From an uncultured Candidatus Saccharibacteria bacterium (lineage in GTDB: Bacteria > Patescibacteriota > Doudnabacteria > UBA920): DNA of 64,000 nt. Below, in pieces: positions 12,263-60,615 of this stretch. The position numbers and the translations under genes were made by a program. The notes under the pieces were generated by a model. It was not told the DNA's origin. It ran no database searches and saw only the letters and a program-made list of their open reading frames with translations. Every line of letters starts with the position of its first letter. Positions within the stretch are counted from its first letter, which is position 1. Where the stretch lies: assembly GCA_964650255.1 (NCBI GenBank), contig CAZYQT010000005.1:2006-66005 (forward strand), given 5' to 3'.

Positions 12263-12544
12263 ATGTTAAGCCGAGAAGAAGTCATCAAAATCAGCCAAAT
12301 GGCTCGCATAAAGCTTCAAGAAGATGAGATCGAAAAGTTCCAAAAGGACCTCTCGTCTGTTTTGGATTATGTAGATGAATTAAAAGCGGTTAATACTGAT
12401 GGGCTAGAGATTGTTTCTAGTGTGACCGGTTTGGAAAATGTGGAGCGCGAAGATAAGGCCGTATTGATTGACTACCAGGAAGAAATTTTGGCCAACGCGC
12501 CGGAACGCAGGGATCGATACTATAAAGTGAAATCAATTTTATAA
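12263..12544 (+). CDS. gatC: Asp/Glu-tRNA amidotransferase subunit C
   Basis: A 93 aa GatC-like sequence whose stop overlaps the gatA start (TAATG). Confidence 0.85.
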   Translation: MLSREEVIKISQMARIKLQEDEIEKFQKDLSSVLDYVDELKAVNTDGLEIVSSVTGLENVEREDKAVLIDYQEEILANAPERRDRYYKVKSIL

Positions 12545-14052
12545 TGGCTAATTGGGAACAGTTAGAGCTGCATGAGCTGCGCGAAAAATTAGACAACAAA
12601 GAAGTTTCGTCTGTTGAACTGACGAAATATTTTTTGGCGCGGGTAAAAGAATTGTCGCCGGTTGGCGATTCGCCAGAAGTACGTGAAAAGTTGAACGCAT
12701 TCATAACTTTGTGTGAAGACGAAGCTTTGGCGCAAGCTGTAGAAGCTGATGAATACATGGCCGCGGGTGGTAAGTCTAATCCACCATTGTGCGGCATTCC
12801 GTTTGCAGCGAAGGATTTATTTTTGACTAAAGGCATTCGCACTACTGCAGCATCAAAAATTTTAGAGAACTACATCCCACCATATGATTCTACTGTGATT
12901 GCGAAGTTGAAAGAGCAGAAAGCAGTGATGATTGGTAAGACTAATATGGATCAGTTTGCGCATGGCTCTTCCGGCGAAACTTCCTTTTATGGTGCAACAC
13001 GAAATCCGTGGGATACCACGCGCATGCCTGGTGGGTCTTCTAGTGGTAGCGCGGCTGCGGTTGCAGCAGGGCTTGCCCCTTGGACTTTAGCAACAGAAAC
13101 TGGCGGCAGTATTCGCCAGCCGGCATCGCTTACAGGAGTTAGTGGATGGAAGCCAACTTATGGCCGAGTTAGTCGCTATGGCGTGGCCGCGATGGCATCA
13201 AGTTTGGATAGCCCTGGTGCAATGGCACGCAGTGTAAAAGATTTAGCAATGATAGCGGAAGTAATTTCCGGGCAAGATGCAAAAGATTCCACAACTGGTC
13301 CGTACGATGTGCCAGCATATTTTGGTGAACTCAACGCAGATATACAAGGAATGAAAATCGGTGTGCCTAAAGAATATTTTGTTGATGGTATGCAGCCAGA
13401 AGTTCGCACGCGCGTGGAAGAAGCGATTGAAGTTTTGAAAAGCAAAGGCGCGGAAATTGTAGAAGTCAGTTTGCCGAACACGAAGTATGGCTCTTTGGTG
13501 TATGCAATTGTGTGCCCGAGTGAAGTATCATCGAACTTAGCGCGCTATGATGGCATCCGCTACGGCCACTCCACGCAAGAAGGTAAAGATTTGTTTGAAG
13601 TGTATGCTAAGAGTCGCGCTGCGGGTTTTGGTGATGAAGCCAAGCGCCGTATTATGACCGGCACTTATGTTTTGTCGGCTGGTTATTACGATGCTTACTA
13701 CAAAAAAGCGCAAGCCGTGCGTCGCTTGATTTTGAATGAGTTTGAAGAAGTGTTTAAGCAAGTTGATGTATTAGTTGCGCCGTCGTCGCCGAATGTTGCT
13801 TTGCCTTTAGGTAAAGCGGCTGACGATCCCTTGTTTGGTTATATTGCTGATCAGTTGAATATTCCAGGGTCTCTTGCTGGAACACCGGGACTTTCTATAC
13901 CTTGTGGTTTCGCTGAAGCAGATGGCAAGCAATTGCCAGTCGGTTTACAAATTATTGGCCCGCAATGGGGCGAACAAAAAGTCTTTAATGTTGGCGCTGC
14001 CTATCAGGAAGTAACTGATTGGCACACTAAGATTCCCGAAACTAATATATAA
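12544..14052 (+). CDS. gatA: Glu/Asp-tRNA amidotransferase subunit A (amidase signature family)
   Basis: Amidase signature GGSSSGSAAAVAAG and catalytic K/S context (AKDLFLTKGIRTTAASK). Confidence 0.9.
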   Translation: MANWEQLELHELREKLDNKEVSSVELTKYFLARVKELSPVGDSPEVREKLNAFITLCEDEALAQAVEADEYMAAGGKSNPPLCGIPFAAKDLFLTKGIRTTAASKILENYIPPYDSTVIAKLKEQKAVMIGKTNMDQFAHGSSGETSFYGATRNPWDTTRMPGGSSSGSAAAVAAGLAPWTLATETGGSIRQPASLTGVSGWKPTYGRVSRYGVAAMASSLDSPGAMARSVKDLAMIAEVISGQDAKDSTTGPYDVPAYFGELNADIQGMKIGVPKEYFVDGMQPEVRTRVEEAIEVLKSKGAEIVEVSLPNTKYGSLVYAIVCPSEVSSNLARYDGIRYGHSTQEGKDLFEVYAKSRAAGFGDEAKRRIMTGTYVLSAGYYDAYYKKAQAVRRLILNEFEEVFKQVDVLVAPSSPNVALPLGKAADDPLFGYIADQLNIPGSLAGTPGLSIPCGFAEADGKQLPVGLQIIGPQWGEQKVFNVGAAYQEVTDWHTKIPETNI

Positions 14053-14057
14053 AATAT

Positions 14058-15683
14058 ATGGAAGAAACCAATATAGCACAACAAATTGAAACTAACGCCT
14101 CCACAGGTTCTCTTGTGGCTACTGAAAAAACGTCTGTGTGGAGATCAGTATTATTTTTTATTGGTACAACAGTTTTATTCGGACTGATTGCAGCAGTGTT
14201 AACAACTGCTTTTCCGAACTATTCAGGGTGTGGGTTTCCTCAATTCGGGCCGTGTGGTAATTTGGGAGGTTTTCCTATGGGTTATTTTTCGTTTCATGAT
14301 TTTAGCATTTTATGGATATCTATTGGTTTAATAGTTAATACTTTATTTTATAGTGCTATTGTGTTAGTCGCTCGGTTAATCGTCCTATTGTTAGCTAAAT
14401 TAGTCAAAGGGTCAAAGAGTTTAGTCTTAGTTATATTAATTTTACTATTACCAATTACAGTCCCAATTTTATTGTGGATTATTTCTTTGGTTGTCACATT
14501 TCCAGGTTCTTTAAGGGATGTATTGTTTTACTTAGGGGACTTACCTTATTTTATTGGAGATAAAATAGGGGTGATAGATACCGTGGCATATGTACCAATA
14601 GAAAGATATGTTTTGATGATTGAAATTCTTATATCTGGTACCGTATTATTTGCAGTATTCTACCTACTTACTTTTTTGAAATCAAGTTTCACAGTACATA
14701 AGTACTACAAATTACTGTTTATAATACTTGCTGTTATTTACCCGGTATTAACTTTTATACCCCACCCATCTTTAGCTGTTATCGACGCACCATCTTATGA
14801 AGATTTGCCATTTACGGTCAGGAATATAATTAAGACTCAAACAGCGCTGCGTTATAATTTAGAAATTAAGAGTTTTCCTGAGGACCAAAAAGTCTATAGT
14901 GTTAGAGTTTGCGCAGCTGATTCTGTGGCAGCTATTAAGGAATTTGGTTCCGATAGTCCTTGTGGTTTCAGTATTTCATACATGCGTAGTAATTCTGGTG
15001 TAATCGAAGATTCAGTCGGAGAAACTTTGTATGATAATGAATTTATCCCACATGCTGGAATAGAAGGTTTAATTCCATCCAACCTAACTGGGAAAGAAAA
15101 AAAACTTATTGTATTTATTGAGCCCCATACGGATGAAGGAGGGATTGTGAGGGGGCTTAGAACTTATGAAGTTAGCCTGGCCAATTATGAAATCAGGCAG
15201 GATTTGGGAATTCCGAAGCTTGATTTCCCAACTGGCTGGAAACAGTATAATAATTTTGATGGATATTCCATTGCTGTCCCCGCAGATTATGTAATATATT
15301 CCAGTATCGATCGGAGCAGTGCTGAACCATGGATGAGGGAAGCCTGGGAAGGCTCGCATCGGGTAAATATTGGAATCAGCGAAAAAGCAGTTGCTGAAAC
15401 TGAATCCCCTCAAATTCACGTTAGAATTCTAGCCAATAACCTTTCCCCTGAAGAAGCACTGACGATGTATATTTCAGAAAATAAATTTATAAATCCTAAG
15501 GGCAGTATTAAAAAAGTTGCTTACCAAAACTCTGATTCATACCGCTGGGATGGGGATGGAACAATTGGCTCACCATTGTATGTAATGTTAGTTTCCCAGG
15601 GAGATCAGTATTTTGTACTGCAACAAGATACAGATGACCCCATCTTAACTCAGATTGCAAATTCATTCACAATTTACGAGTAA
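14058..15683 (+). CDS. Hypothetical polytopic membrane protein (541 aa) embedded in the gatCAB operon
   Basis: Starts 5 nt after the gatA stop and ends 1 nt before the gatB ATG. It has ~7 TM helices in the N-terminal half and a ~270 aa soluble C-terminal domain with no family I recognise. AT-rich relative to gatA and gatB. Confidence 0.6.
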   Translation: MEETNIAQQIETNASTGSLVATEKTSVWRSVLFFIGTTVLFGLIAAVLTTAFPNYSGCGFPQFGPCGNLGGFPMGYFSFHDFSILWISIGLIVNTLFYSAIVLVARLIVLLLAKLVKGSKSLVLVILILLLPITVPILLWIISLVVTFPGSLRDVLFYLGDLPYFIGDKIGVIDTVAYVPIERYVLMIEILISGTVLFAVFYLLTFLKSSFTVHKYYKLLFIILAVIYPVLTFIPHPSLAVIDAPSYEDLPFTVRNIIKTQTALRYNLEIKSFPEDQKVYSVRVCAADSVAAIKEFGSDSPCGFSISYMRSNSGVIEDSVGETLYDNEFIPHAGIEGLIPSNLTGKEKKLIVFIEPHTDEGGIVRGLRTYEVSLANYEIRQDLGIPKLDFPTGWKQYNNFDGYSIAVPADYVIYSSIDRSSAEPWMREAWEGSHRVNIGISEKAVAETESPQIHVRILANNLSPEEALTMYISENKFINPKGSIKKVAYQNSDSYRWDGDGTIGSPLYVMLVSQGDQYFVLQQDTDDPILTQIANSFTIYE

Positions 15684-15684
15684 T

Positions 15685-17208
15685 ATGGAACTAAAAGGCT
15701 ACAAACCAGTTATAGGACTCGAGATCCACGTGCAGCTTGCTACTAAGAGCAAGATGTTTTCGAGTGCGCCGTGCGATCCCGAAGAAAAAATTCCGAACAC
15801 AAATATAGACGAGGTCGCAACTGGCGAGCCCGGCTCTTTGCCGGTGATTAACAAAGAAGCAGTGCGTTTGGGCGTTATGGTGGGCATGGCTTTGAATTGC
15901 GAGATTCCGGAATATTCTAAGTTTGACCGCAAACATTATTTTTACCCTGATCTTCCAAAGGGGTATCAGATTTCGCAATTGGATCATCCTGTTGCGGCAA
16001 AGGGCTATGTAGATATTTCTGTTCCTGCGGATCCGAATCGTGAAGGAAACAAAGATGCTTACACAAAACGCATTAGAATTACGCGCGCGCATTTGGAAGA
16101 AGATGCCGGGAAGAACACACACCCAGAGGGTTTGCCTTATTCTTTAGTAGATTTGAATCGCGCCGGCTGTCCGCTTTTGGAAATTGTAACTGAGCCTGAT
16201 GTCGAAACAGCAGAAGAAGCGCGCATCTTTTTGCAGGAGCTGCAGAGAATTGTTCGTTATGTGGGAGCATCAAGTGCAGATATGGAAAAAGGCACGATGC
16301 GCTGCGAGCCAAACATTTCGGTGCGTAAGCCTGGTGAAGAAAGTTTGCCGAAATATAAAGTTGAAGTGAAGAACATCAATAGCTTTAAGTTTGCCGAAGC
16401 TGCAATTAATTACGAAATTCCGCGGCACATTGAAATGCTCGAAGCAGGTGAGATGCCAAAGCAGGTAACCATGGGCTGGAATGAAAAGTACAACAAGACT
16501 GTTGAACAGCGCGAAAAGGGTGAAGCTAATGATTATCGTTACATGCCAGAACCAGATTTACCAGAACTCCATTTTACAGAAGAGTTTAAAGCAAAGCTTC
16601 GTGCCGAACTACCAGAATTGCCAGCACAAAAGCGCGTGCGTTTTAAAGCTGAGTTCGGCTTGGATGATGCAGGAATTGAAACTTTGCTCAACTGGAAGCA
16701 AATGAATGAGTACTTTGAGGAAGTAGTAAGTGAAATTGATGCATGGATGCTCACTGATGGAAATTCTGACAACCAAGACTTGCGTGCGAAGTTAATTAAA
16801 CTTGCTGCTAATTGGTGTGTGCAAGATTTTTCCGCATTGCTTAATGCAGAGCTTGCTAATCCACTTGAATCACGAGTTAGTGCGGAAAATATGGCAGAAT
16901 TAGTTAAGCTAATCGACAACGGAAAAATTTCTGGGTCTGCTGCCAAACAAGTGTTTAAAGTAATGTACGAAAAAGGCGGTGAGCCAGATATGATTGTCGA
17001 AGACTTGGGTTTGGTGCAGGTGAGTGATGCTGGTGCGATTGAATCAGCTATCGACGAAGTTATTGCAGCTAACGAAAAAGCTGTTGCAGATTTTAAAGCT
17101 GGCGAACAAAAATCATTTGGCTTCTTGGTCGGCCAAGTTATGGCGCACATGAAAGGCAAGGCCAATCCGCAGGTTGTAAATGAGTTGTTGAAGAAAAAAC
17201 TAAGTTAA
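15685..17208 (+). CDS. gatB: Glu/Asp-tRNA amidotransferase subunit B
   Basis: MELKGYKPVIGLEIHVQL...GxxxVRKPGEE... core and the C-terminal GatB/YqeY domain. The track start at 15655 is a TTG extension; the ATG is at 15685. Confidence 0.9.
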   Translation: MELKGYKPVIGLEIHVQLATKSKMFSSAPCDPEEKIPNTNIDEVATGEPGSLPVINKEAVRLGVMVGMALNCEIPEYSKFDRKHYFYPDLPKGYQISQLDHPVAAKGYVDISVPADPNREGNKDAYTKRIRITRAHLEEDAGKNTHPEGLPYSLVDLNRAGCPLLEIVTEPDVETAEEARIFLQELQRIVRYVGASSADMEKGTMRCEPNISVRKPGEESLPKYKVEVKNINSFKFAEAAINYEIPRHIEMLEAGEMPKQVTMGWNEKYNKTVEQREKGEANDYRYMPEPDLPELHFTEEFKAKLRAELPELPAQKRVRFKAEFGLDDAGIETLLNWKQMNEYFEEVVSEIDAWMLTDGNSDNQDLRAKLIKLAANWCVQDFSALLNAELANPLESRVSAENMAELVKLIDNGKISGSAAKQVFKVMYEKGGEPDMIVEDLGLVQVSDAGAIESAIDEVIAANEKAVADFKAGEQKSFGFLVGQVMAHMKGKANPQVVNELLKKKLS

Positions 17209-51244: not shown

Positions 51245-52678
51245 ATGGCTAATTCACCAGACAATCAAGACGATAAAAAACACATGGCTGCTAGCGATTC
51301 TATGCGTGAGTTTTTGAATATGGGGAGTAAGGAAGGCGAACTGTCACCGTCGATCGATCTTTCAGCCAATAGTGATTCGAAATCTGTAGAGGCGCAACAG
51401 ATTGGGGAGCTGCCACCAGACCTGCCGTTTTTAGATACTTTAGAAGAACCAGGAGAAGATTCAGAAGCTCCTTCGCAGACATCACCAAATACTCCGCCCA
51501 GCCCAGCTGGACCAGTGGAGCAAATTCTTGGGCCTGCTGCAGACAAAGGCAACGAAGGCTATGCTTTCGTTCTGTGGTTAGTAAAATCAATCGCTCCCTA
51601 CGTGGTAATTTTTGCGATCGGTTTAGGGTTGTACTTTTTCTATTTTAGCGACTTTTCATTTACTAGTGTTTTCAAAACCAACAGCATCACCCTAGAAAAG
51701 GTGACCAGCTCTTCCAATAAGGATTTGGAAAAACTGAAGAGTGACCAGAAAGAAGAATATTTAAAATGGATGTCGCAATTCTTTTTCGCGGTAAATGATG
51801 ATGCGATTATTTCTATGGATGCCGATGTTTCGGGGAATGGTTTGTCTAACTTTGAAAAGTATTTGTTGGATTTAAATCCAAAAGTTTACAGTACTCGCGG
51901 TACCAGTAAGCCCGATGGCGAGTTGGTAGCTGAAGGAATTAACCCTTGGACCGGTAAGCCTTTCACAGACAAGCAAAAAGAATTAGTTGATAAATACATT
52001 AGCAAAGAGTTAGTCAGCAACCGCATTACCGCGGCAGCGTTGAATCGTGGTGTAACTAAGTTTGCACAATATGTAAACGAAGACTCTCCTTATTACATAG
52101 ATCCGAACACGCTTAAGGAAACAGCGAACAATCCTGCCAATGAAACCCAGAACAATGAGATTGCTCATAACGCAGCTCAGCAGGCGAATTCACCTTCGGC
52201 AGGTAACATCAATCCCGGAAGCGATATTAATCAATCTATCCCAGGACACTTAGACATTCCGGCGAATAACATTTCCGTGCCTCTCATTTGGACTAAGGAT
52301 GTGAAAGATTTTGACAAAGATTTAAAGAATGGCGTGGTGCACTATCCAGGCACTGCTTTGCCTGGACAGTTGGGGACTAGTTATATTTCTGGTCACTCGA
52401 GCGGGTACCTTTGGGATAAGAGTGCATACAAAGAAGTCTTTGCTATTTTGGGAAATGTAACTGATGGTACTTCGTTTACTATCACGGCTACTTTAAATAA
52501 TGGCCAAAAGGTTCGCTATGACTATGTGGTTACTGGTCGAGGAGAGTTTGCTGCTAACGATCAGGCCCAGTTTGTGAATACTGCTGATTCCATGGTGGCT
52601 TTGTCTACTTGCTGGCCAGTGGGAACTACAGCGCGTCGTCTAGTTTTGTTCGCAAAATTAGTCCAAACTAGCCAATAA
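51245..52678 (+). CDS. Sortase-family transpeptidase with a long N-terminal disordered region and one TM
   Basis: C-terminal domain carries the sortase catalytic triad context: YISGHSS (His), ALSTCWP (TLxTC-like Cys), TTARRLV (Arg). The N-terminus is Pro/Ser/Glu-rich followed by a TM helix. Confidence 0.7.
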   Translation: MANSPDNQDDKKHMAASDSMREFLNMGSKEGELSPSIDLSANSDSKSVEAQQIGELPPDLPFLDTLEEPGEDSEAPSQTSPNTPPSPAGPVEQILGPAADKGNEGYAFVLWLVKSIAPYVVIFAIGLGLYFFYFSDFSFTSVFKTNSITLEKVTSSSNKDLEKLKSDQKEEYLKWMSQFFFAVNDDAIISMDADVSGNGLSNFEKYLLDLNPKVYSTRGTSKPDGELVAEGINPWTGKPFTDKQKELVDKYISKELVSNRITAAALNRGVTKFAQYVNEDSPYYIDPNTLKETANNPANETQNNEIAHNAAQQANSPSAGNINPGSDINQSIPGHLDIPANNISVPLIWTKDVKDFDKDLKNGVVHYPGTALPGQLGTSYISGHSSGYLWDKSAYKEVFAILGNVTDGTSFTITATLNNGQKVRYDYVVTGRGEFAANDQAQFVNTADSMVALSTCWPVGTTARRLVLFAKLVQTSQ

Positions 52679-53039: not shown

Positions 53040-53996
53040 ATGAAGTATATTTCACTTCTTTTCGTTGCGTTCATTTTCATTGCTTTCGCTGATGTTGCGA
53101 ATGCTCAAATCGTTAAAGACAAGCGTCGGGCGATAAGCCTTGGCACTTGCGTGGACATCGACCAGCTGCCTCAAGACGTTCAGGATCTCCTGGAGAATTC
53201 TGACCTTGATGAGTACGTTGATGAGTCGTCGCTCGACGGTATGGGGCCAAACAAGGTTCGTAATGCCGGCTGGGCAACAGTTGGTGTTTGGAATGAGAGA
53301 CCAGGCAATAAGCATCATAAAACGCAGTTTTGTTTTTCTGTTCTCGACGGCGATGCCGACGTTTGGACTCTGAACGGCGACAGGAATCCACAAGTTGGTT
53401 ATCTTGATAAATGTCTTAAAGACGGTAAACGAACTTTCAAAAATCGCATCCTCGTTCCACCCTCAAAGGTGGTAACAAAGGAAAAGATCGAGTTTAAGGA
53501 TAAGATCGTGTATAAGGACAAACTTGTCGAGAAGGATTGCCCGGAATGCCCGGATGATACTAAACTTGTCGAGGTCACAACTGGCAAGGAACGCTTAACT
53601 GGTGGGCTTAAGGGCACTGCTGTTTCGGCAGGAATTGCTTGCACAATCTCGGGGATTATAAATAAGTCCCTTAGGGACTGCGCAATTGATGCAGCTATAT
53701 CGGCAGGTGGTAATCGTGTTGCTCAGGCCGTTAATCCTTCACCCAATGCTGTCCGCGCTTATTGCGATGGAGAGAATAAGGTTTTCAAAAGAGGGAATGG
53801 CGGTAAGGTAGGCGGTTGTCAGCTGGAATGGGAAGGCAATACAGCCGTGTTGAAATTTGATGGCAAAGAGTGCAAATCACGCACCCTCGGCCACAATCTT
53901 AATACAACTGTTTTCGCGATTGAACGAAACAACGGACCATCCTCAACTCGGAAAACAATCAATACCCAGACACGTCGAGTTCGTGTTGTTAGGTAG
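53040..53996 (+). CDS. Hypothetical secreted Cys-rich protein (318 aa), GC-rich
   Basis: Signal peptide (LLFVAFIFIAFADVANA), about 14 Cys, a KDK-rich mid-region, no recognised family. GC is higher than neighbouring genes. Confidence 0.6.
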   Translation: MKYISLLFVAFIFIAFADVANAQIVKDKRRAISLGTCVDIDQLPQDVQDLLENSDLDEYVDESSLDGMGPNKVRNAGWATVGVWNERPGNKHHKTQFCFSVLDGDADVWTLNGDRNPQVGYLDKCLKDGKRTFKNRILVPPSKVVTKEKIEFKDKIVYKDKLVEKDCPECPDDTKLVEVTTGKERLTGGLKGTAVSAGIACTISGIINKSLRDCAIDAAISAGGNRVAQAVNPSPNAVRAYCDGENKVFKRGNGGKVGGCQLEWEGNTAVLKFDGKECKSRTLGHNLNTTVFAIERNNGPSSTRKTINTQTRRVRVVR

Positions 53997-54123: not shown

Positions 54124-54861
54124 ATGAAAAAATTATCTGTGGTAATTCCGGCCTACAATGAGGAAAAACGGATTACCGCCACCCTTAAGAGCGTTGATCA
54201 TTATCTCGAAAAGCAAAAGTACGACTATGAGATAATCGTTATCGACAATAATAGTAAGGATCGTACCAGCGAAGTCGTTAAAAAGTTAGAAGCAACTACT
54301 GTGCAAAAGTCTTCGGTGGTCTTGGTAAAAAATCCCGGCAAGGGCGCAGCGGTAAAAGCTGGCCTCCTGGAATCTGCCAAGGGCGACATTGTTATGTTTA
54401 TGGACGCAGATAATGCTACCCCAATTTCGGAAATCGAAAAGTTTTTGCCTTACTTCGATCAAGGCTACGACGTAGTAATTGGATCACGCTATACGAACCC
54501 GGATTTGGTTAAAGTTCACCAGCCCCTCTATAGAATTATTTTGTCTCGTATGAGTAACTTACTGATTCAGTTTTTGGCCGTACCAGGGATTAAAGATACC
54601 CAGCTTGGCTTTAAAGCTTTCACAGCAAAAGCAGCAAAAGATATTTTCCCTTTTGTGACTGTGCCTCGGTGGGGTTTTGATATGGAAGTACTTACTGTTG
54701 CCAATGCTCGTGGCTACAAAATTAAAGAAGTCGGTGTGTCTTGGACAGAGCATGGCGGCGGGCACGTGCCTTTAAAAGCTTATATTGAATCTCTTATAGA
54801 TTTATTAAAAATAAAAGTTCGTTCAATGTCGGGTCGTTACACTGCGAAACGACCAGCCTAA
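54124..54861 (+). CDS. Polyprenol-phosphate glycosyltransferase (GT2; Dpm1/GtrB/ArnC-like)
   Basis: LSVVIPAYNEEKRI...IIVIDNNSKDRT...FMDADNATP...QLGFKAF, a typical DPM1-like sequence. TTGCTATACT lies upstream at 54090-54099. Confidence 0.8.
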   Translation: MKKLSVVIPAYNEEKRITATLKSVDHYLEKQKYDYEIIVIDNNSKDRTSEVVKKLEATTVQKSSVVLVKNPGKGAAVKAGLLESAKGDIVMFMDADNATPISEIEKFLPYFDQGYDVVIGSRYTNPDLVKVHQPLYRIILSRMSNLLIQFLAVPGIKDTQLGFKAFTAKAAKDIFPFVTVPRWGFDMEVLTVANARGYKIKEVGVSWTEHGGGHVPLKAYIESLIDLLKIKVRSMSGRYTAKRPA

Positions 54862-54876
54862 TCTATTCATCAACAA

Positions 54877-56760
54877 ATGTTAAAACTAAAACTAAAATTA
54901 TTGGTATGTGTTTTAACTGCCACTTCCATTGTCGGAAGTGGGTTTTTTGCTATGCCTGCCAAAGCTGCAGACAAACAAGTTGCAGCTGTACGCCATGATT
55001 TCGTAATCAAATTAAAATCATCCGACGCTCAAATCCTAAAAGCCTTACCAGGCATTACCAATATTCAGCCGGTATTCATTAATGCCCAAAGTGATATCCT
55101 TTCTAATACCTATACTTTTAGTTCAACATCTTCACTAGAAGTTCTGCGCCAAACCTTCGAAGGGTTGTACCAATATCTGGACGCCAACGATCCCATAACA
55201 GATTCTGCAATCAAAACTTCTGGCAAAGCCAAAAAGGTATTACCTAACGACCCATTTTTTACCCAGAATGCTGTTAATGTAGATAAGCAGTGGGGATTGG
55301 TAAAAGCAAATTTTATCACTGCCTGGGAAACGAGCCTGGGGAAGCGCAGCACTGTAGTAGCGGTGATTGATACGGGCATTGATGGTACGCACGAAGATTT
55401 CGAGCACACTAAGTTTGTTGGCGGGTACAACACTATCACCAAAAAAACTCTTGTTGCTGGTGGGAACTCAGACGATAACGGCCACGGTACACTAATAGCA
55501 GGAGTAATTGCCGCTTCGACAGATAACAAAACTGGTATTGCTGGTGCGGCCTCCGGTGTTTCTTTAATGGCGGTTAAAGCTTTAAATTCTAGTGGCAGCG
55601 GCAGTTCATCAAAAATTTCTGAAGCTATTGTTTGGGCCGCCGACCATAATGCCGATGTAATTAATCTTTCTTTGGGTGGTATTGGATTTGGTCACGATAC
55701 TGTGTTAGCAAGTGCCATCACTTATGCCTTTAATAAAAATGTTGTGATTGTTGCAGCGGCTGGCAATGATGTTGCTATTACTGGAGGGAACCTCGATAAA
55801 GATCCAGTGTTTCCGATTTGTGATGATAATGGTCAGAACATGGTGATTGGTGTAACTGCCACAGACAGCAATGACCTCAAGCCATCGTTTGCTAATTACG
55901 GAAAGGCTTGTGTAGATGTTTCCGCTCCAGGCAAGCGCATTTTGTCCACTGTTAACCATGATCCAACTACAGGCCGCGAAGCCCCCGATGCTTACGCTTA
56001 CGCCTCTGGTACATCACTAGCAGTGCCGTTTGTAAGTGCTCAGGCGGGATTGCTTCGTTCAGTATTTCCAAGGGCCACTAATCGACAGATTAGAGACCGT
56101 ATTATCGGCACTGCAGACAGTATCGATGCTCTTAATTTAAGCCAGTGTGGTGACCAGTCTTGCGCTGGTTATCTAGGCGGGGGTCGTATTAATGCTGCAA
56201 AGAGTTTAGAGGCAAAGTTTGCGGATCTTGCTGATGGTGATGTCATTCAGGTTAAAGGAACATCAGAATATTTCTATATTAATGGCGGTAAGAGACAGCC
56301 GATCAGCCCCTTTGTTAAAGGACAGCGATTTGCAAGTGCGAAAATAAAAATAGTTCCACTTTCAGAGTTAGAGGATTTTCCAGAGGGGTCATATGCAGAG
56401 CCGTTAGACGGTACACTGGTGAAGAGTCCAAATGAAGGCGCTGTCTATTATATGCAAGATGGTTTGCGCCGACCATTAACAGCGCAGGTTTTTTCTATGC
56501 GTGGATTTAAGTTTTCCGATATTGTTACTTTGACCAACGTTGAGGTTGGGTCGTGGATTGAAGGTAGTTTCTTAGCCCCTCCAGATGGAACGATCGTTCG
56601 AGGCAAAACCAACCCAACTATTTATTGGACAGTCAACGGAATCATTCATCCGATCAACTATGAATTTTTCGTCAACCGTGGATTGAACGCGCTGCCTATT
56701 ATTTATTTTCCAGATGGTGATGTTGCTAAATTTCCACATGGCGACCCATATGTTTTGTAA
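54877..56760 (+). CDS. Secreted subtilisin-like serine peptidase (S8) with C-terminal ~57 aa repeats
   Basis: Asp (VAVIDTGID), His (HGTLIAG) and Ser (GTSLAVPFV) catalytic motifs, a signal peptide, and three C-terminal repeats (...YFYINGGKRQPISPFVKGQRF...). Confidence 0.85.
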   Translation: MLKLKLKLLVCVLTATSIVGSGFFAMPAKAADKQVAAVRHDFVIKLKSSDAQILKALPGITNIQPVFINAQSDILSNTYTFSSTSSLEVLRQTFEGLYQYLDANDPITDSAIKTSGKAKKVLPNDPFFTQNAVNVDKQWGLVKANFITAWETSLGKRSTVVAVIDTGIDGTHEDFEHTKFVGGYNTITKKTLVAGGNSDDNGHGTLIAGVIAASTDNKTGIAGAASGVSLMAVKALNSSGSGSSSKISEAIVWAADHNADVINLSLGGIGFGHDTVLASAITYAFNKNVVIVAAAGNDVAITGGNLDKDPVFPICDDNGQNMVIGVTATDSNDLKPSFANYGKACVDVSAPGKRILSTVNHDPTTGREAPDAYAYASGTSLAVPFVSAQAGLLRSVFPRATNRQIRDRIIGTADSIDALNLSQCGDQSCAGYLGGGRINAAKSLEAKFADLADGDVIQVKGTSEYFYINGGKRQPISPFVKGQRFASAKIKIVPLSELEDFPEGSYAEPLDGTLVKSPNEGAVYYMQDGLRRPLTAQVFSMRGFKFSDIVTLTNVEVGSWIEGSFLAPPDGTIVRGKTNPTIYWTVNGIIHPINYEFFVNRGLNALPIIYFPDGDVAKFPHGDPYVL

Positions 56761-56853
56761 TACATAGTGCAGTTGATTTTCACCTCGAAATCTTATATTG
56801 TAATAACAGCAAAGTTTAGCCGTCTAAAATAATAGGTTCGCAATTATTTACTT

Positions 56854-58740
56854 ATGAAGAAACACAAATCATTTTTAATTTACAGTTTAATTATCGGGGG
56901 TTTATTTTTTTCCTCCTTATCTAACCCCGCTGCAGTTTTAGCTGCTGAGCCAGTTCAGTCTGGATTCAACCCTAACAAACTTATTGATGATAAGGTTTTT
57001 TCCAATTCCAAAACTATGACTGCTTCTGATATTCAGAAGTTTCTAGATAGCAAAAACAGTGTTTTAGCAAACACCAGCGATTCATTTATATCCCAATTGA
57101 AGGAACCAGTTAGCAATCAAACTTTAAAGGAAACTTTGGAAGATCCAGGCGCATCATCAACCTCACCAAGGACTGCGGCGCAGTTAATTTTTGATGCTGC
57201 TAAATCTAGCGGCTTAAACCCGCAAGTTATTTTAGTCACTCTTAACAAAGAACAAAGTTTAATTACTGGGCGTCAGAATGCAACTCCAGAACAACTCCAG
57301 CGCGCCTTAGATTTTGCTATGGGTTTTGGCTGTCCAGACAGTCAACCTTGCGGCGACATCTATCGCGGTTTTTATTTTCAACTCTTTGGTGGAGTTGATG
57401 CAGAAAATAATCGTTACTTAGGTGCTGCAAAATCTTTGATGAAATCATTTGAAACCCCAGGCGGTCGTGGCCCTTGGTATAATGGTGCGACCTCAAAAGT
57501 TGGAGACACTATTACTTTGGGTAATACAGTTGGAAATTACGAAGGGGTTGAGGCAAATCAGACGGTCACTCTTTCAAACGCGGCCACTGCTGCGCTTTAC
57601 CGCTACACCCCACATGTTTTTAATGGGAATTATAATTTTTGGCGATTCTTTAAGCTGTGGTTTGGCGGTAAGTCCAGCGACTCAGGCAGTAGTGTGAACG
57701 GTTTGGTTAAAACCTCCTCGACTGGTGATGTGTATGTGGTGGAGAATAATACTCGGTACAAGGTTTTGCCATTCGTGGCCAAGGCCAACGATCTAAAAGT
57801 ATCCAAGGCAAAAAAAGTTAGCAAAAGCACGTTCAATAAATATTCTGATGGCGGCCTCTACCCAGTTCCAGATAATACTTTAATTAAAGTTGGCACTAAA
57901 TATTATTTGTTTTTAGCCAACCAGAAGCGACCAATTAGTGAAGAGAATATTAAGAGCCGTGGTTTAAAAATTGCTGATGCAATTGATGCTAACAGTTCTG
58001 ATGCTGATAAATACACAACCGGCGAACAAATTGCTATTACAGACGGCGCGGTTCTAAAGGGCACGTCCAGGCCAGATGTTTATTTGCTAACCAATGGCAA
58101 ACTCAAGCTATTTACATACGCTACTTTCCAGCAGTACGGAGCAGCAGCGAACATGCTCACTGTGGCCGACACTGTGATTGATGGTTATGCGAAAGATGGT
58201 TTAGTTTTGCCTAAGTCAGGGAGTTTGGTAAAGAGTTTTAACTCTGCAACTGTTTATTTTTACGAAGATGGTCAGAAAAAACCGATGGACGGAGAGATTT
58301 TCCGTAATCGCGGCTTTTCATTGAGCAATGTTTACGAACTCACTCAGGCGGAAATCGACGCCTTGCCGTTAGGACCATTCCCTTTGCCAGCCAACAATAC
58401 ATTTTTTGAGGACAAGAAAACCCATCAATTGTATTGGTACACCGATGGTAAGAAACGATCAATTTCGTCTTTTGTAGCCAAGCAAAAAAACATTACTCCA
58501 GATTTCAGTTTCGGTGAAGACACCATCAAAAATTTACCAGACGGAACTCCAGTGCTGCCAAAAGAAGGCACAGTGTTTAAGAGTGACAAAAAAGCAGACG
58601 TTTATATTATTAGTTCAAGTGTAGCTCGGCCTTTGTCTGCAGCTGCGTTTACAGCACGAGGTATTACTCCTGCTCAAGTTAATATTTTACCTCAGGCAGA
58701 AGTAGATAGCTATCCAAAAGGTTCGCTTTTGACACAATAA
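56854..58740 (+). CDS. Secreted repeat protein (628 aa) sharing the ~57 aa repeat with the S8 peptidase
   Basis: Signal peptide and an N-terminal domain of unknown function (possibly glycan-hydrolase-like). Six C-terminal repeats of consensus dGtlvK...vY.i..g.kRPi....f..rGf. Confidence 0.6.
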   Translation: MKKHKSFLIYSLIIGGLFFSSLSNPAAVLAAEPVQSGFNPNKLIDDKVFSNSKTMTASDIQKFLDSKNSVLANTSDSFISQLKEPVSNQTLKETLEDPGASSTSPRTAAQLIFDAAKSSGLNPQVILVTLNKEQSLITGRQNATPEQLQRALDFAMGFGCPDSQPCGDIYRGFYFQLFGGVDAENNRYLGAAKSLMKSFETPGGRGPWYNGATSKVGDTITLGNTVGNYEGVEANQTVTLSNAATAALYRYTPHVFNGNYNFWRFFKLWFGGKSSDSGSSVNGLVKTSSTGDVYVVENNTRYKVLPFVAKANDLKVSKAKKVSKSTFNKYSDGGLYPVPDNTLIKVGTKYYLFLANQKRPISEENIKSRGLKIADAIDANSSDADKYTTGEQIAITDGAVLKGTSRPDVYLLTNGKLKLFTYATFQQYGAAANMLTVADTVIDGYAKDGLVLPKSGSLVKSFNSATVYFYEDGQKKPMDGEIFRNRGFSLSNVYELTQAEIDALPLGPFPLPANNTFFEDKKTHQLYWYTDGKKRSISSFVAKQKNITPDFSFGEDTIKNLPDGTPVLPKEGTVFKSDKKADVYIISSSVARPLSAAAFTARGITPAQVNILPQAEVDSYPKGSLLTQ

Positions 58741-58745
58741 GCTGA

Positions 58746-60179
58746 ATGTCGAGCCCTTCGAAAAACATTTTGTGGTTGTCAGTTTCAAGGATCATTTCCC
58801 TGATCCTTTTGTTTTTAGCTTATTTACTCCTAACTAGTTACTTAGGGCCCTATCGTTACGGTCAATTTCAGTTTGTGTTGTCGTATGTGACTTTGTTTGG
58901 CGTAGTAATTGATTTCGGCATTCAGCAGTACATTATCAAAAAAGTTAGCGAGGATCGAAGCCAAGCTAAAAAATATTTTCACAATTTTTTAGCAGTGGAA
59001 CTGTTGATGGTGGTCATTGTTTATGGCGCCATGGTCGCAGTTGCTAGGATTAATGGCTATGATCCGGTAGTTATCAAGGCTATAACAGTGGCCGGGTTGG
59101 GTGTGGCCATCCATGGTTTAACTTATCCGTTCCTGGCTATTATCACGGTGTTTTATGATTTAAAGAAAGCCGCGTTTCTAAACTTTCTCAGTTCAGCTAT
59201 TAACGTGGCCATGATCTTAATCACCATTAAAGTCGGTGGGGGGATCGTTATGCTAACCTTCCAACAACTTATTTATGCAACTTTGGCGGTGGTTATCTAT
59301 TACCACTTTGTTAAAAAACACATTGGTAAACCAGAAATTTTACACGGCCTACGCACCCTAGATAAAAAATTAATCAAGACGATTTTGATTGCTGCGTTAC
59401 CATTCGCTCTGTTGGTAGGGTTTAGTACCGTGTATAATCGGATCGATGTGGTTTTGATTAAGCAAATTTTAGGGTACACCCAGACGGGTTTGTACTCAGC
59501 TGCCTATAAGTTTTATGATTTACTAGCTTTTTTCCCAGCGGTGGTTTCACATACTTTGTACCCACTCTTTTCTTCACTCATGGCTGAGGGGAAGCTTGGA
59601 GAAATTCGTACCATCCTCGAAAGATATTTACGATTCATGGCGGCCTTGGCTTTACCGATTGGTATGGGCGGGATGTTGCTTTCAAAACAGATTATTGGGA
59701 TCCTTAGTCCTGAGTTCACTTCGGCAGCAACAGTTTTAGCTATCCTCGTCTGGGCGCCATCAATATTATTTATGTACATTGTGGTTAACTCTTTAGTTAT
59801 TTCTCAGCTTACTAAATGGGCAATGGTGATTACTGGTGTGAATGTTTTGGTGAACATAGTTGGTAATATAATTCTACTACCGAGAATTGGAATCGAAGGC
59901 GCCGCGATTATGACTTTAGTTTCAGAATTTTTGCAAGGAGTTTTCTATTTTTACTTTGTACGAAAAAAGATTACAGATTTTCATTTCTTCAGTTTAATCT
60001 GGCGACCAATTTGCGCAGCCGTCATGATGGGGGTAGTGGTATGGTTTATTCGCGATTGGCCTTTGGTGGGAGCAATCGTAATCGGAGTGGTAGTTTATGG
60101 TCTTTCTTTATTTGCTCTTCGCTTTTTCCATAAAGATGATGTTACGTTTATTAAGGCATTGGTGAGTCGTGGCGTTTAA
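58746..60179 (+). CDS. Wzx-like oligosaccharide flippase (MOP superfamily polysaccharide biosynthesis protein)
   Basis: About 12-14 TM helices and a typical Wzx/MurJ-family N-terminus (ILWLSVSRIISLILLFLAYLLLTSYLGPYRYGQFQF). Confidence 0.7.
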   Translation: MSSPSKNILWLSVSRIISLILLFLAYLLLTSYLGPYRYGQFQFVLSYVTLFGVVIDFGIQQYIIKKVSEDRSQAKKYFHNFLAVELLMVVIVYGAMVAVARINGYDPVVIKAITVAGLGVAIHGLTYPFLAIITVFYDLKKAAFLNFLSSAINVAMILITIKVGGGIVMLTFQQLIYATLAVVIYYHFVKKHIGKPEILHGLRTLDKKLIKTILIAALPFALLVGFSTVYNRIDVVLIKQILGYTQTGLYSAAYKFYDLLAFFPAVVSHTLYPLFSSLMAEGKLGEIRTILERYLRFMAALALPIGMGGMLLSKQIIGILSPEFTSAATVLAILVWAPSILFMYIVVNSLVISQLTKWAMVITGVNVLVNIVGNIILLPRIGIEGAAIMTLVSEFLQGVFYFYFVRKKITDFHFFSLIWRPICAAVMMGVVVWFIRDWPLVGAIVIGVVVYGLSLFALRFFHKDDVTFIKALVSRGV

Positions 60180-60615
60180 AAAAACAACCCGGGTCATGGT
60201 TTTCGGTACCTTTGATATGATTCACCCGGGCCACAAACATTTTTTTCAACAGGCTCGTGCTTTGGTAAAACCACCGGGCAAAGCTTATTTAATAGTATCT
60301 TTGGCCCGGGATAAAAACGTGCATCGTATAAAAAACAAGCTACCAATGGCGAACGAACAAAAACGACTAGCTCAAATTAAAGCTTTGCCAGAGGTAGATA
60401 AAGCTGTGCTTGGAGCTATTGGTGACCACATTCCGCCAATTGTTAGACTTCACCCAGATATTATTGCGCTTGGTTACGACCAAACCGCCTATGTAAAAGG
60501 CTTGCGTCGCGATCTAAAGGCTGCAGGGATTAACCCAAGAATCATTCGCTTGAAACCCCACAAGCCACATTTGTATAAAACATCGATAATTCAACCCAAG
60601 CTATCTTTGCGATAG
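60169..60615 (+). CDS. ribL: FAD synthase, archaeal RibL-type (CTP-dependent FMN adenylyltransferase; cytidylyltransferase fold)
   Basis: GTFDMIHPGH (HxGH), ARDKNVHRIKNK...NEQKRLAQIKALPEVDKAVLG and PDIIALGYDQT closely parallel RibL. Overlaps the flippase stop by 11 nt. Confidence 0.65.
   Translation: MAFKKTTRVMVFGTFDMIHPGHKHFFQQARALVKPPGKAYLIVSLARDKNVHRIKNKLPMANEQKRLAQIKALPEVDKAVLGAIGDHIPPIVRLHPDIIALGYDQTAYVKGLRRDLKAAGINPRIIRLKPHKPHLYKTSIIQPKLSLR

Follow-up and report, generated by a model that had tools for sequence, protein, structure and literature searches.

Two adjacent genes on a 64,000-nucleotide (nt) stretch of DNA from an uncultured Candidatus Saccharibacteria bacterium (contig CAZYQT010000005.1; the whole stretch is called the window below) encode a secreted S8 serine peptidase (protein 1) and a secreted 628-amino-acid (aa) protein (protein 2), which carry three and six C-terminal copies, respectively, of the same repeat unit of about 58 aa. 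Our analysis indicates that this unit is very probably homologous to the R1–R4 repeat domains of EccB, a protein of the type VII secretion system (T7SS). We propose that an EccB-type domain has been redeployed here as a multivalent array for retaining enzymes at the cell wall, an explanation that, taken as a whole, we hold to be moderately likely. The shared repeat had first been pointed out in an earlier note, which was made by a model from the letters and their open reading frames (ORFs).

An EccB-type repeat domain on two secreted proteins

We delimited nine contiguous units of 57–59 aa, three in protein 1 (nt 56230–56757) and six in protein 2 (nt 57694–58737; Table 1). By BLASTP, the tails of the two proteins align with E = 5e-22 across 174 aa, and five more significant alignments between them have their registers shifted by ~57 aa. 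In a non-circular test, a hidden Markov model (HMM) built from the units of one protein only was searched against the other protein. The HMM of the six protein 2 units recovers the three units of protein 1 with independent E-values of 1.4e-7, 8e-14, and 4.7e-11, and the reverse HMM, built from the protein 1 units, recovers all six units of protein 2 with values of 1.3e-3 to 8e-13. The BLASTP alignment and the reciprocal HMMs bear out the earlier note, which had placed the same ~57 aa repeat on both proteins in three plus six copies, and the four peptides that it quoted are all found in the translations. The array of protein 2 is C-terminal, as that note had it, but it takes up 55% of the protein (aa 281–628) and not two thirds. 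The unit is absent from every other ORF of the window in six-frame translation. Pairwise identity among the units is 12–37% and Tandem Repeats Finder detects no tandem repeat at the DNA level, which together rule out a recent DNA duplication; the duplication of the units is therefore old. Conservation in the protein 2 family is specific to the individual repeat position, with 37–48% identity among orthologs versus 21% between positions (paralogs).

For comparison with known structures, 713 units out of 120 protein 2 homologs were aligned and thinned to 62 diverse units (alignment A2). Searched against the sequences of all solved structures, the A2 profile gave significant matches only to EccB1 of Mycobacterium tuberculosis (4kk7, E = 1.2e-4; 3x3m, E = 1.7e-4), with unit positions 4–57 aligned to the ectodomain repeat R1; EccB3 ranked next. 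The AlphaFold2 model of full-length protein 2 has a mean pLDDT (predicted local distance difference test) of 89.9 and a whole-chain pTM (predicted template-modelling score) of 0.48. The structure prediction that the earlier note had suggested yields the order strand-strand-strand-helix-strand-helix in every unit of this model, at a pLDDT of ~90, and on this model the unit is an autonomous small domain. In a Foldseek search of the full protein 2 model against the PDB, the top 11 matches are EccB5, EccB1, and EccB3, with probability 1.00 and E-values of 5.4e-9 to 2.9e-6; after a gap, the next match has E = 0.017. Because the N-terminal domain modelled alone gives no EccB match in Foldseek, the similarity to EccB resides in the repeats. 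The EccB1 structure has four repeat domains of 51–57 residues, each with a four-stranded sheet and two helices (PMC4769845), and the unit shares with them both the sequence similarity and this fold. The Pfam EccB model (PF05108) independently reaches 44.9 bits, against a gathering cut-off of 27, within the repeat array of P0307, a non-EccB protein with a BACON domain and seven repeats; its best match among 60 repeat-bearing proteins is 8.8e-17, and six of the 62 family members of protein 2 give weak matches. The fold is thus not an unknown one, as its relatives in EccB have solved structures.

In the libraries searched (Pfam and NCBIfam), no stand-alone domain model exists for the unit. The tail of protein 1 and the entire length of protein 2 show no Pfam or NCBIfam match down to E ≤ 1, and PF05108 itself is not matched by either protein at that threshold. 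SH3b, LysM, CW_binding_1/2, PG_binding_1, SLH, SPOR, GW, and ChW likewise give no match at E ≤ 1 in the two proteins or in the 62 family members, in agreement with the earlier note, which did not recognise the repeat as a named wall-binding one.

The two proteins bear what appears on reading by eye to be a cleavable type of signal peptide at the N-terminus, and inspection of their sequences reveals no LPXTG motif, C-terminal anchor, or membrane anchor in either. Protein 1 is a subtilase of family S8, with a Peptidase_S8 domain at aa 157–415 (Pfam, E = 1.5e-47) and an intact Asp-His-Ser triad (DTG165, HGT203, GTS378). The nearest solved enzymes to this domain among PDB sequences (top 60) are Ak.1 protease, thermitase, and subtilisin Carlsberg. 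We considered a mycosin, the protease type that would link protein 1 to a T7SS, and rejected it: the mycosin model TIGR03921 is the best NCBIfam model, yet it scores 175.1 bits against a cut-off of 278.75; the 60 PDB relatives are all of thermitase or subtilisin types, with no mycosin among them; and the C-terminus of protein 1 is the repeat array and not a C-terminal transmembrane anchor. Exactly three repeats are present in all 120 S8 homologs among the matches listed.

Protein 2 has 661 homologs in the protein database; those listed are 42–82% identical over the full length, are all named hypothetical, and carry no Pfam domain. We confirmed 272 protein 2 loci in GTDB species genomes, nearly all of them labelled Patescibacteria, and the labels on homologs include Patescibacteria, Saccharibacteria, Doudnabacteria, and Uhrbacteria. 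Five loci labelled 'uncultured Gammaproteobacteria' or 'Candidatus Binatia' in GTDB (L055, L073, L078, L080, and L082) hold full-length protein 2 homologs typical of Patescibacteria, and these labels probably reflect mislabelled or contaminated bins of metagenome-assembled genomes.

The N-terminal domain of protein 2 is more conserved than the repeats, with a mean identity of 68% among orthologs. Its invariant residues include E133-Q134 (in the motif NKEQSL), the C160/C166 pair, and many aromatic residues, and E133 is located at the C-terminal end of a modelled helix (123–134). A separate model of this domain is very confident (pLDDT 93.1, pTM 0.91). Foldseek of the model against the PDB returns no significant match, all E-values lying between 0.67 and 10 with a template-modelling (TM) score of at most 0.40; the top non-significant ranks are enriched in the lysozyme superfamily, namely SltB1, SltB2, Slt35, the GH73 members LytB, AtlE, FlgJ, and SagB, g-type lysozymes, and phiKZ gp144. 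At the sequence level, the profile search against the PDB, hhalign against a GH73-bearing protein, and PHROGs were all negative. We put the chance that the domain is a divergent lysozyme-like glycosidase, possibly of a new peptidoglycan glycosidase family, at about even.

Table 1. Window coordinates of the repeat-bearing proteins, their parts, and the neighbouring genes
Feature	Position (nt)	Strand	Basis
Sortase, much extended at its N-terminus, frequently found upstream of the cassette	51245..52678	+	Pfam Sortase 2.3e-15, aa 336-473
GT2 glycosyltransferase, first cassette gene, 15 nt before the S8 gene	54124..54861	+	ORF; GT2 identity from Glycos_transf_2 of syntenic homologs
Protein 1, secreted S8 serine peptidase of thermitase-like type, three repeats at the C-terminus	54877..56760	+	ORF, 627 aa; Pfam Peptidase_S8
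Protein 1 repeat unit 1	56230..56406	+	aa 452-510
Protein 1 repeat unit 2	56407..56583	+	aa 511-569
Protein 1 repeat unit 3	56584..56757	+	aa 570-627
Protein 2, secreted, signal peptide, conserved N-terminal domain, and six repeats	56854..58740	+	ORF, 628 aa; AlphaFold model
Protein 2 N-terminal domain, possible very divergent lysozyme-like glycosidase	56944..57687	+	aa 31-278; conservation and model
Protein 2 repeat unit 1	57694..57870	+	aa 281-339
Protein 2 repeat unit 2	57871..58041	+	aa 340-396
Protein 2 repeat unit 3	58042..58215	+	aa 397-454
Protein 2 repeat unit 4	58216..58392	+	aa 455-513
Protein 2 repeat unit 5	58393..58563	+	aa 514-570
Protein 2 repeat unit 6	58564..58737	+	aa 571-628
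Wzx/MurJ-type polysaccharide flippase, 5 nt past protein 2	58746..60179	+	Pfam Polysacc_synt 1.1e-25, MurJ 1.1e-7
Cytidylyltransferase-like protein, last cassette gene, overlaps the flippase gene	60169..60615	+	Pfam CTP_transf_like 4.3e-14

Fusion partners, distribution, and gene neighbourhood

An exhaustive HMMER search of 1.84 billion protein-cluster representatives with the A2 profile, a database search of the kind that the earlier note had asked for, found 5,219 representatives carrying the repeat at E ≤ 1e-3, of which 2,001 reach E ≤ 1e-10 and 181 reach E ≤ 1e-30; within the window, the two proteins are the only carriers. The module is therefore not specific to one lineage, as had been supposed, but occurs in many architectures. 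We examined these architectures in the best 150 of the 5,219 representatives, which are 162 to 3,254 aa long and hold 3–16 units each. The partner is the protein 2 N-terminal domain in 24, an S8 domain in 19, and a recognised peptidoglycan-hydrolase domain (Amidase_2, SpoIID, M23, or glucosaminidase) in at least 38, while 23 are essentially repeats alone and 46 have other regions; the array reaches the C-terminus in 106 of the 150. A Pfam scan of 60 carriers with neither the N-terminal domain nor an S8 domain identified SpoIID (23), Amidase_2 (20), Peptidase_M23 (4), Glucosaminidase (2), and CHAP (1), as well as PA14, PKD, cohesin, LGFP, CAP, trypsin, and others. The order Amidase_2, repeats, SpoIID recurs among them. 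The repeat is thus a promiscuous module and is not confined to the S8/protein 2 gene pair.

The repeat fold also occurs in a viral structure library, in a protein of Rhodococcus phage Weasels2 (A0A1I9SA71, E = 3.1e-6, TM 0.70 over a 115-aa target) and in one of Streptomyces phage LukeCage (A0A345MGB2, E = 4e-4), with weaker matches to phage proteins that carry M23, amidase, CHAP, or lysozyme annotations. The actinophage proteins that share the fold are small (~100–118 aa), uncharacterised, and contain about two units each. A weak match to the repeat was further seen for PHROG 9616 (phrog_9616, 118 aa, function not known), and the tail of protein 1 has no tblastn match in 50,697 phage genomes.

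The gene order around the pair was compared in 80 loci (L005–L084) from GTDB species genomes, 72 of which have enough upstream sequence for the S8 gene to be assessed. In 66 of these 72 genomes, the S8 gene lies directly upstream of protein 2 on the same strand, and in 65 of the 66 it encodes exactly three repeats; a GT2 homolog is present at the corresponding position in 61 of the 80 loci. The commonest arrangement, GT2, S8 with three repeats, N-terminal domain with six repeats, flippase, and cytidylyltransferase, recurs with the same order and strand in the genomes of dozens of Patescibacteria species. In the window, the successive intergenic distances in this cassette are 15, 93, 5, and −11 nt, and this spacing suggests that the genes from GT2 to cytidylyltransferase form one transcription unit. 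A scan for regulatory sites was uninformative on the transcription of the cassette, with promoter-like sites below the shuffled expectation and terminator-like sites about equal to it. In an 8-repeat subfamily of protein 2 (e.g., P0091), no S8 neighbour is found. At L001/L002 (6001–9967), the gene that comes after an 8-repeat protein 2 lies on the other strand and encodes a 587-aa protein with a PG_binding_1 domain.

Ahead of the cassette (54124–60615 in the window; also L003, L004, and L005–L084) there is often a sortase, together with one or two small hypothetical proteins that are secreted, and the upstream sortase itself is present in L003, L004, and 15 of the 80 loci within the flank examined. 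Around it lie envelope genes, comprising rml-type sugar-nucleotide genes, GT2, GT4, and GT-C transferases, the sortase, PBP2, a Mur ligase, and MreB; the co-location with a flippase and glycosylation genes that had been claimed earlier is real, and the GT2 and flippase neighbours are conserved. Beyond its domain, the N-terminal part of the 477-aa sortase comprises a low-complexity Pro/Ser-rich stretch and then a hydrophobic segment. Between the sortase and GT2 genes, nt 53040–53996 encode a protein of 318 aa that appears to have a signal peptide and gives no match in Pfam. A recognisable homolog occupies the same position in only five of the 80 syntenic loci, and no LPXTG was noticed on reading its C-terminus, where no pattern search was run.

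A T7SS was not found to accompany the cassette. The scanned window ORFs of at least 150 aa and the syntenic loci contain no EccC, EccD, EccE, MycP, or WXG100 gene, small WXG100-type ORFs not having been searched for specifically, and Pfam scans of 30 further window ORFs identified housekeeping and envelope genes and nothing like EccC, EccD, or EccE. Elsewhere in the window, a 541-aa ORF (14058–15683) without a Pfam match at E ≤ 1e-4 is located between an Amidase-family ORF (12544–14052, likely GatA) and GatB (15655–17208), a place in which one would expect either a small gatC or no gene at all.

Proposed wall retention and its alternatives

In the explanation that we favour, an EccB-type unit would have been removed from its T7SS context in Patescibacteria and reused in tandem at the C-terminus of Sec-exported enzymes, with three copies on the thermitase-like S8 peptidase and six on the protein with the candidate lysozyme-like N-terminal domain. 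The arrays would hold these exported enzymes on the cell envelope through multivalent, non-covalent binding to a wall polymer. By default this polymer would be peptidoglycan; it may instead be a wall glycopolymer, possibly a rhamnose-containing one, for whose synthesis and export the nearby GT2, flippase, cytidylyltransferase, and rml genes would be responsible. Wall retention is the best-supported reading because the proteins have export signals without any other anchor, because the arrays are C-terminal and tandem with a copy number that varies across proteins, because wall hydrolases are strongly enriched among the fusion partners, and because the neighbourhood is one of envelope biosynthesis. 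The surface-anchoring or glycan-binding role suggested by the earlier note accordingly stands as the best reading of the signal peptides, the C-terminal arrays, the missing anchor, and the hydrolase-rich partners. What the analysis shows directly is the repeats with their EccB-type homology and fold, how widely and with which partners they occur, and the conservation of the cassette; we infer the wall binding itself, its ligand, and the catalytic nature of the N-terminal domain. The isoelectric point (pI) of the protein 2 array, 9.2, is that of a basic array and is in favour of wall retention.

A wall glycopolymer stays under consideration as the ligand on two grounds: PlyCB binds a polyrhamnose wall carbohydrate, and the cassette, which adjoins rml genes, has glycosyltransferase, flippase, and cytidylyltransferase genes among its members. 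PlyCB (PDB 4F87) is the cell-wall-binding subunit of the streptococcal phage lysin PlyC, and its structural relationship to the repeat is taken from the literature. By analogy with PlyCB, the two-unit actinophage proteins could act as wall-binding subunits that stand on their own.

The tandem and rigid-looking domains, with confident models for each domain and the low whole-chain pTM, would also suit a passive spacer or stalk, in which the arrays only distance the catalytic domains from the membrane or span the wall, with no specific binding. But a stalk would need a membrane or covalent anchor to project from, which both proteins lack, the conservation is position-specific, and the module has been selectively recruited to wall hydrolases; we regard a mere stalk as very improbable.

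Several observations weigh against wall retention. Peptidoglycan binding by the EccB repeats themselves was put forward as a hypothesis (PMC4769845), and the functions demonstrated for these repeats are protein–protein contacts (PMC8131196). PlyCB is not among the best 50 Foldseek PDB matches of the protein 2 model, the array of protein 1 is acidic (pI 5.4), and the 46 of the best 150 carriers with other or unknown partners include proteins with PA14, PKD, cohesin, and CAP. The fixed copy number (3 and 6) and the position-specific conservation fit a defined architecture equally well as an avidity array.

The main rival is a protein–protein scaffold, in which the arrays of the S8 peptidase and protein 2 would bind each other or themselves to form a defined extracytoplasmic complex, with wall contact secondary or absent. 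In EccB itself, dimerisation runs through R1 and R4, and the repeats support the docking of an S8 protease, MycP5, on EccB5 (PMC8131196). The adjacency of the two genes with three repeats on the S8 partner, the fixed copy numbers with every repeat position individually conserved, and the opposite charges of the two arrays are all in line with such a complex. However, the repeat is attached in 3–16 copies to a wide range of unrelated enzymes, most notably those that hydrolyse peptidoglycan, an S8 neighbour is missing in the 8-repeat subfamily of protein 2, and the S8 domain is thermitase-like and not mycosin-like. We consider such a scaffold rather unlikely, and it is to be noted that the scaffold and wall-retention readings are compatible and not mutually exclusive.

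A bolder analogy, for which we see a slim chance, is that the pairing of an S8 peptidase with EccB-type repeats represents a free-standing relative of the EccB–MycP periplasmic cap, with the arrays forming an extracytoplasmic processing chamber or a wall-embedded complex. If this were true, the T7SS ectodomain would have been built from an older, widespread wall-associated module, and the EccB repeats would really be wall-binding, which would settle the 2016 hypothesis.

The arrays may also be directed at another cell. Many Patescibacteria attach to other bacteria, and the source organism belongs to this group; arrays that bind the wall of a host would deliver a protease and a glycosidase at the point of contact. 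Actinobacteria are known hosts of Saccharibacteria, and the other carriers of the fold that we found are actinobacterial EccB and the small actinophage proteins of Weasels2 and LukeCage. In contrast, the cassette lies among the producer's own envelope-synthesis genes (GT2, flippase, and cytidylyltransferase) and is conserved over several classes with unknown hosts, and the proteins with the order Amidase_2, repeats, SpoIID resemble housekeeping autolysins. Host-directed adhesion or attack appears improbable to us.

Significance and comparison with known systems

The fold and the domain are already known from EccB, and tandem repeats that bind the wall are a familiar concept. The apparent novelty lies in recognising that secreted hydrolases in Patescibacteria very widely carry an EccB-type domain as a C-terminal module without a name of its own, and that the module occurs within a conserved envelope cassette; among open-access papers and bioRxiv preprints, we found none that uses the term 'EccB-like' or ties EccB repeats to Patescibacteria or to the wall-binding domains of hydrolases. 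As the module is unannotated in more than 5,000 protein clusters, a large part of the surface enzymes of Patescibacteria (autolysins and proteases) is left without a recognised targeting domain, and a stand-alone domain model would annotate them. The relatives, mostly found on peptidoglycan hydrolases, offer comparative support for wall binding by the periplasmic repeats of EccB, whose ligand has been open since 2016, and the repeat-bearing proteins are simple soluble proteins for studying what EccB repeats bind. The conserved cassette, with its GT2 glycosyltransferase, S8 peptidase, possible new glycosidase, flippase, and cytidylyltransferase, suggests that this largely unculturable group has a module dedicated to envelope remodelling. 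If the ligand were defined, a possible use of the arrays would be as affinity probes, either for Patescibacteria or for their hosts.

Comparison with EccB (Pfam PF05108; PDB 4kk7, 3x3m, 5cyu, 6sgy, and 7nps) indicates that a repeat domain of ~55 aa is common to both, but there are significant differences in how it is deployed. EccB combines a cytoplasmic N-terminal segment and a single transmembrane helix with precisely four repeats, which are paired around a central β-sheet core (PMC4769845), whereas the two window proteins have signal peptides, linear arrays of three and six repeats, other N-terminal domains, and no core domain; the EccB family architecture of a transmembrane helix, a core, and four repeats in quasi-two-fold arrangement is thus not found in them. 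The genes of EccB accompany those of EccC, EccD, EccE, and MycP, and the genes of the window proteins have no T7SS neighbours. In the case of the thermitase/Ak.1-type subtilases (MEROPS S8A), the catalytic domain of protein 1 matches them at E 5e-42 to 3e-40 with the triad intact, but the solved chains, of ~280 aa, stop at the catalytic domain and protein 1 adds three C-terminal repeats.

The tandem wall-binding modules of Gram-positive bacteria, such as the CW_binding_2 triplets of the Clostridioides Cwp proteins, LysM, SH3b, choline-binding repeats, and SLH, are C-terminal repeats on secreted hydrolases and proteases. They provide non-covalent retention, with a copy number that varies between proteins. 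Although Pfam reveals no sequence relationship to these classical modules in the window proteins and the 62 family members, the arrays described here share the same overall logic.

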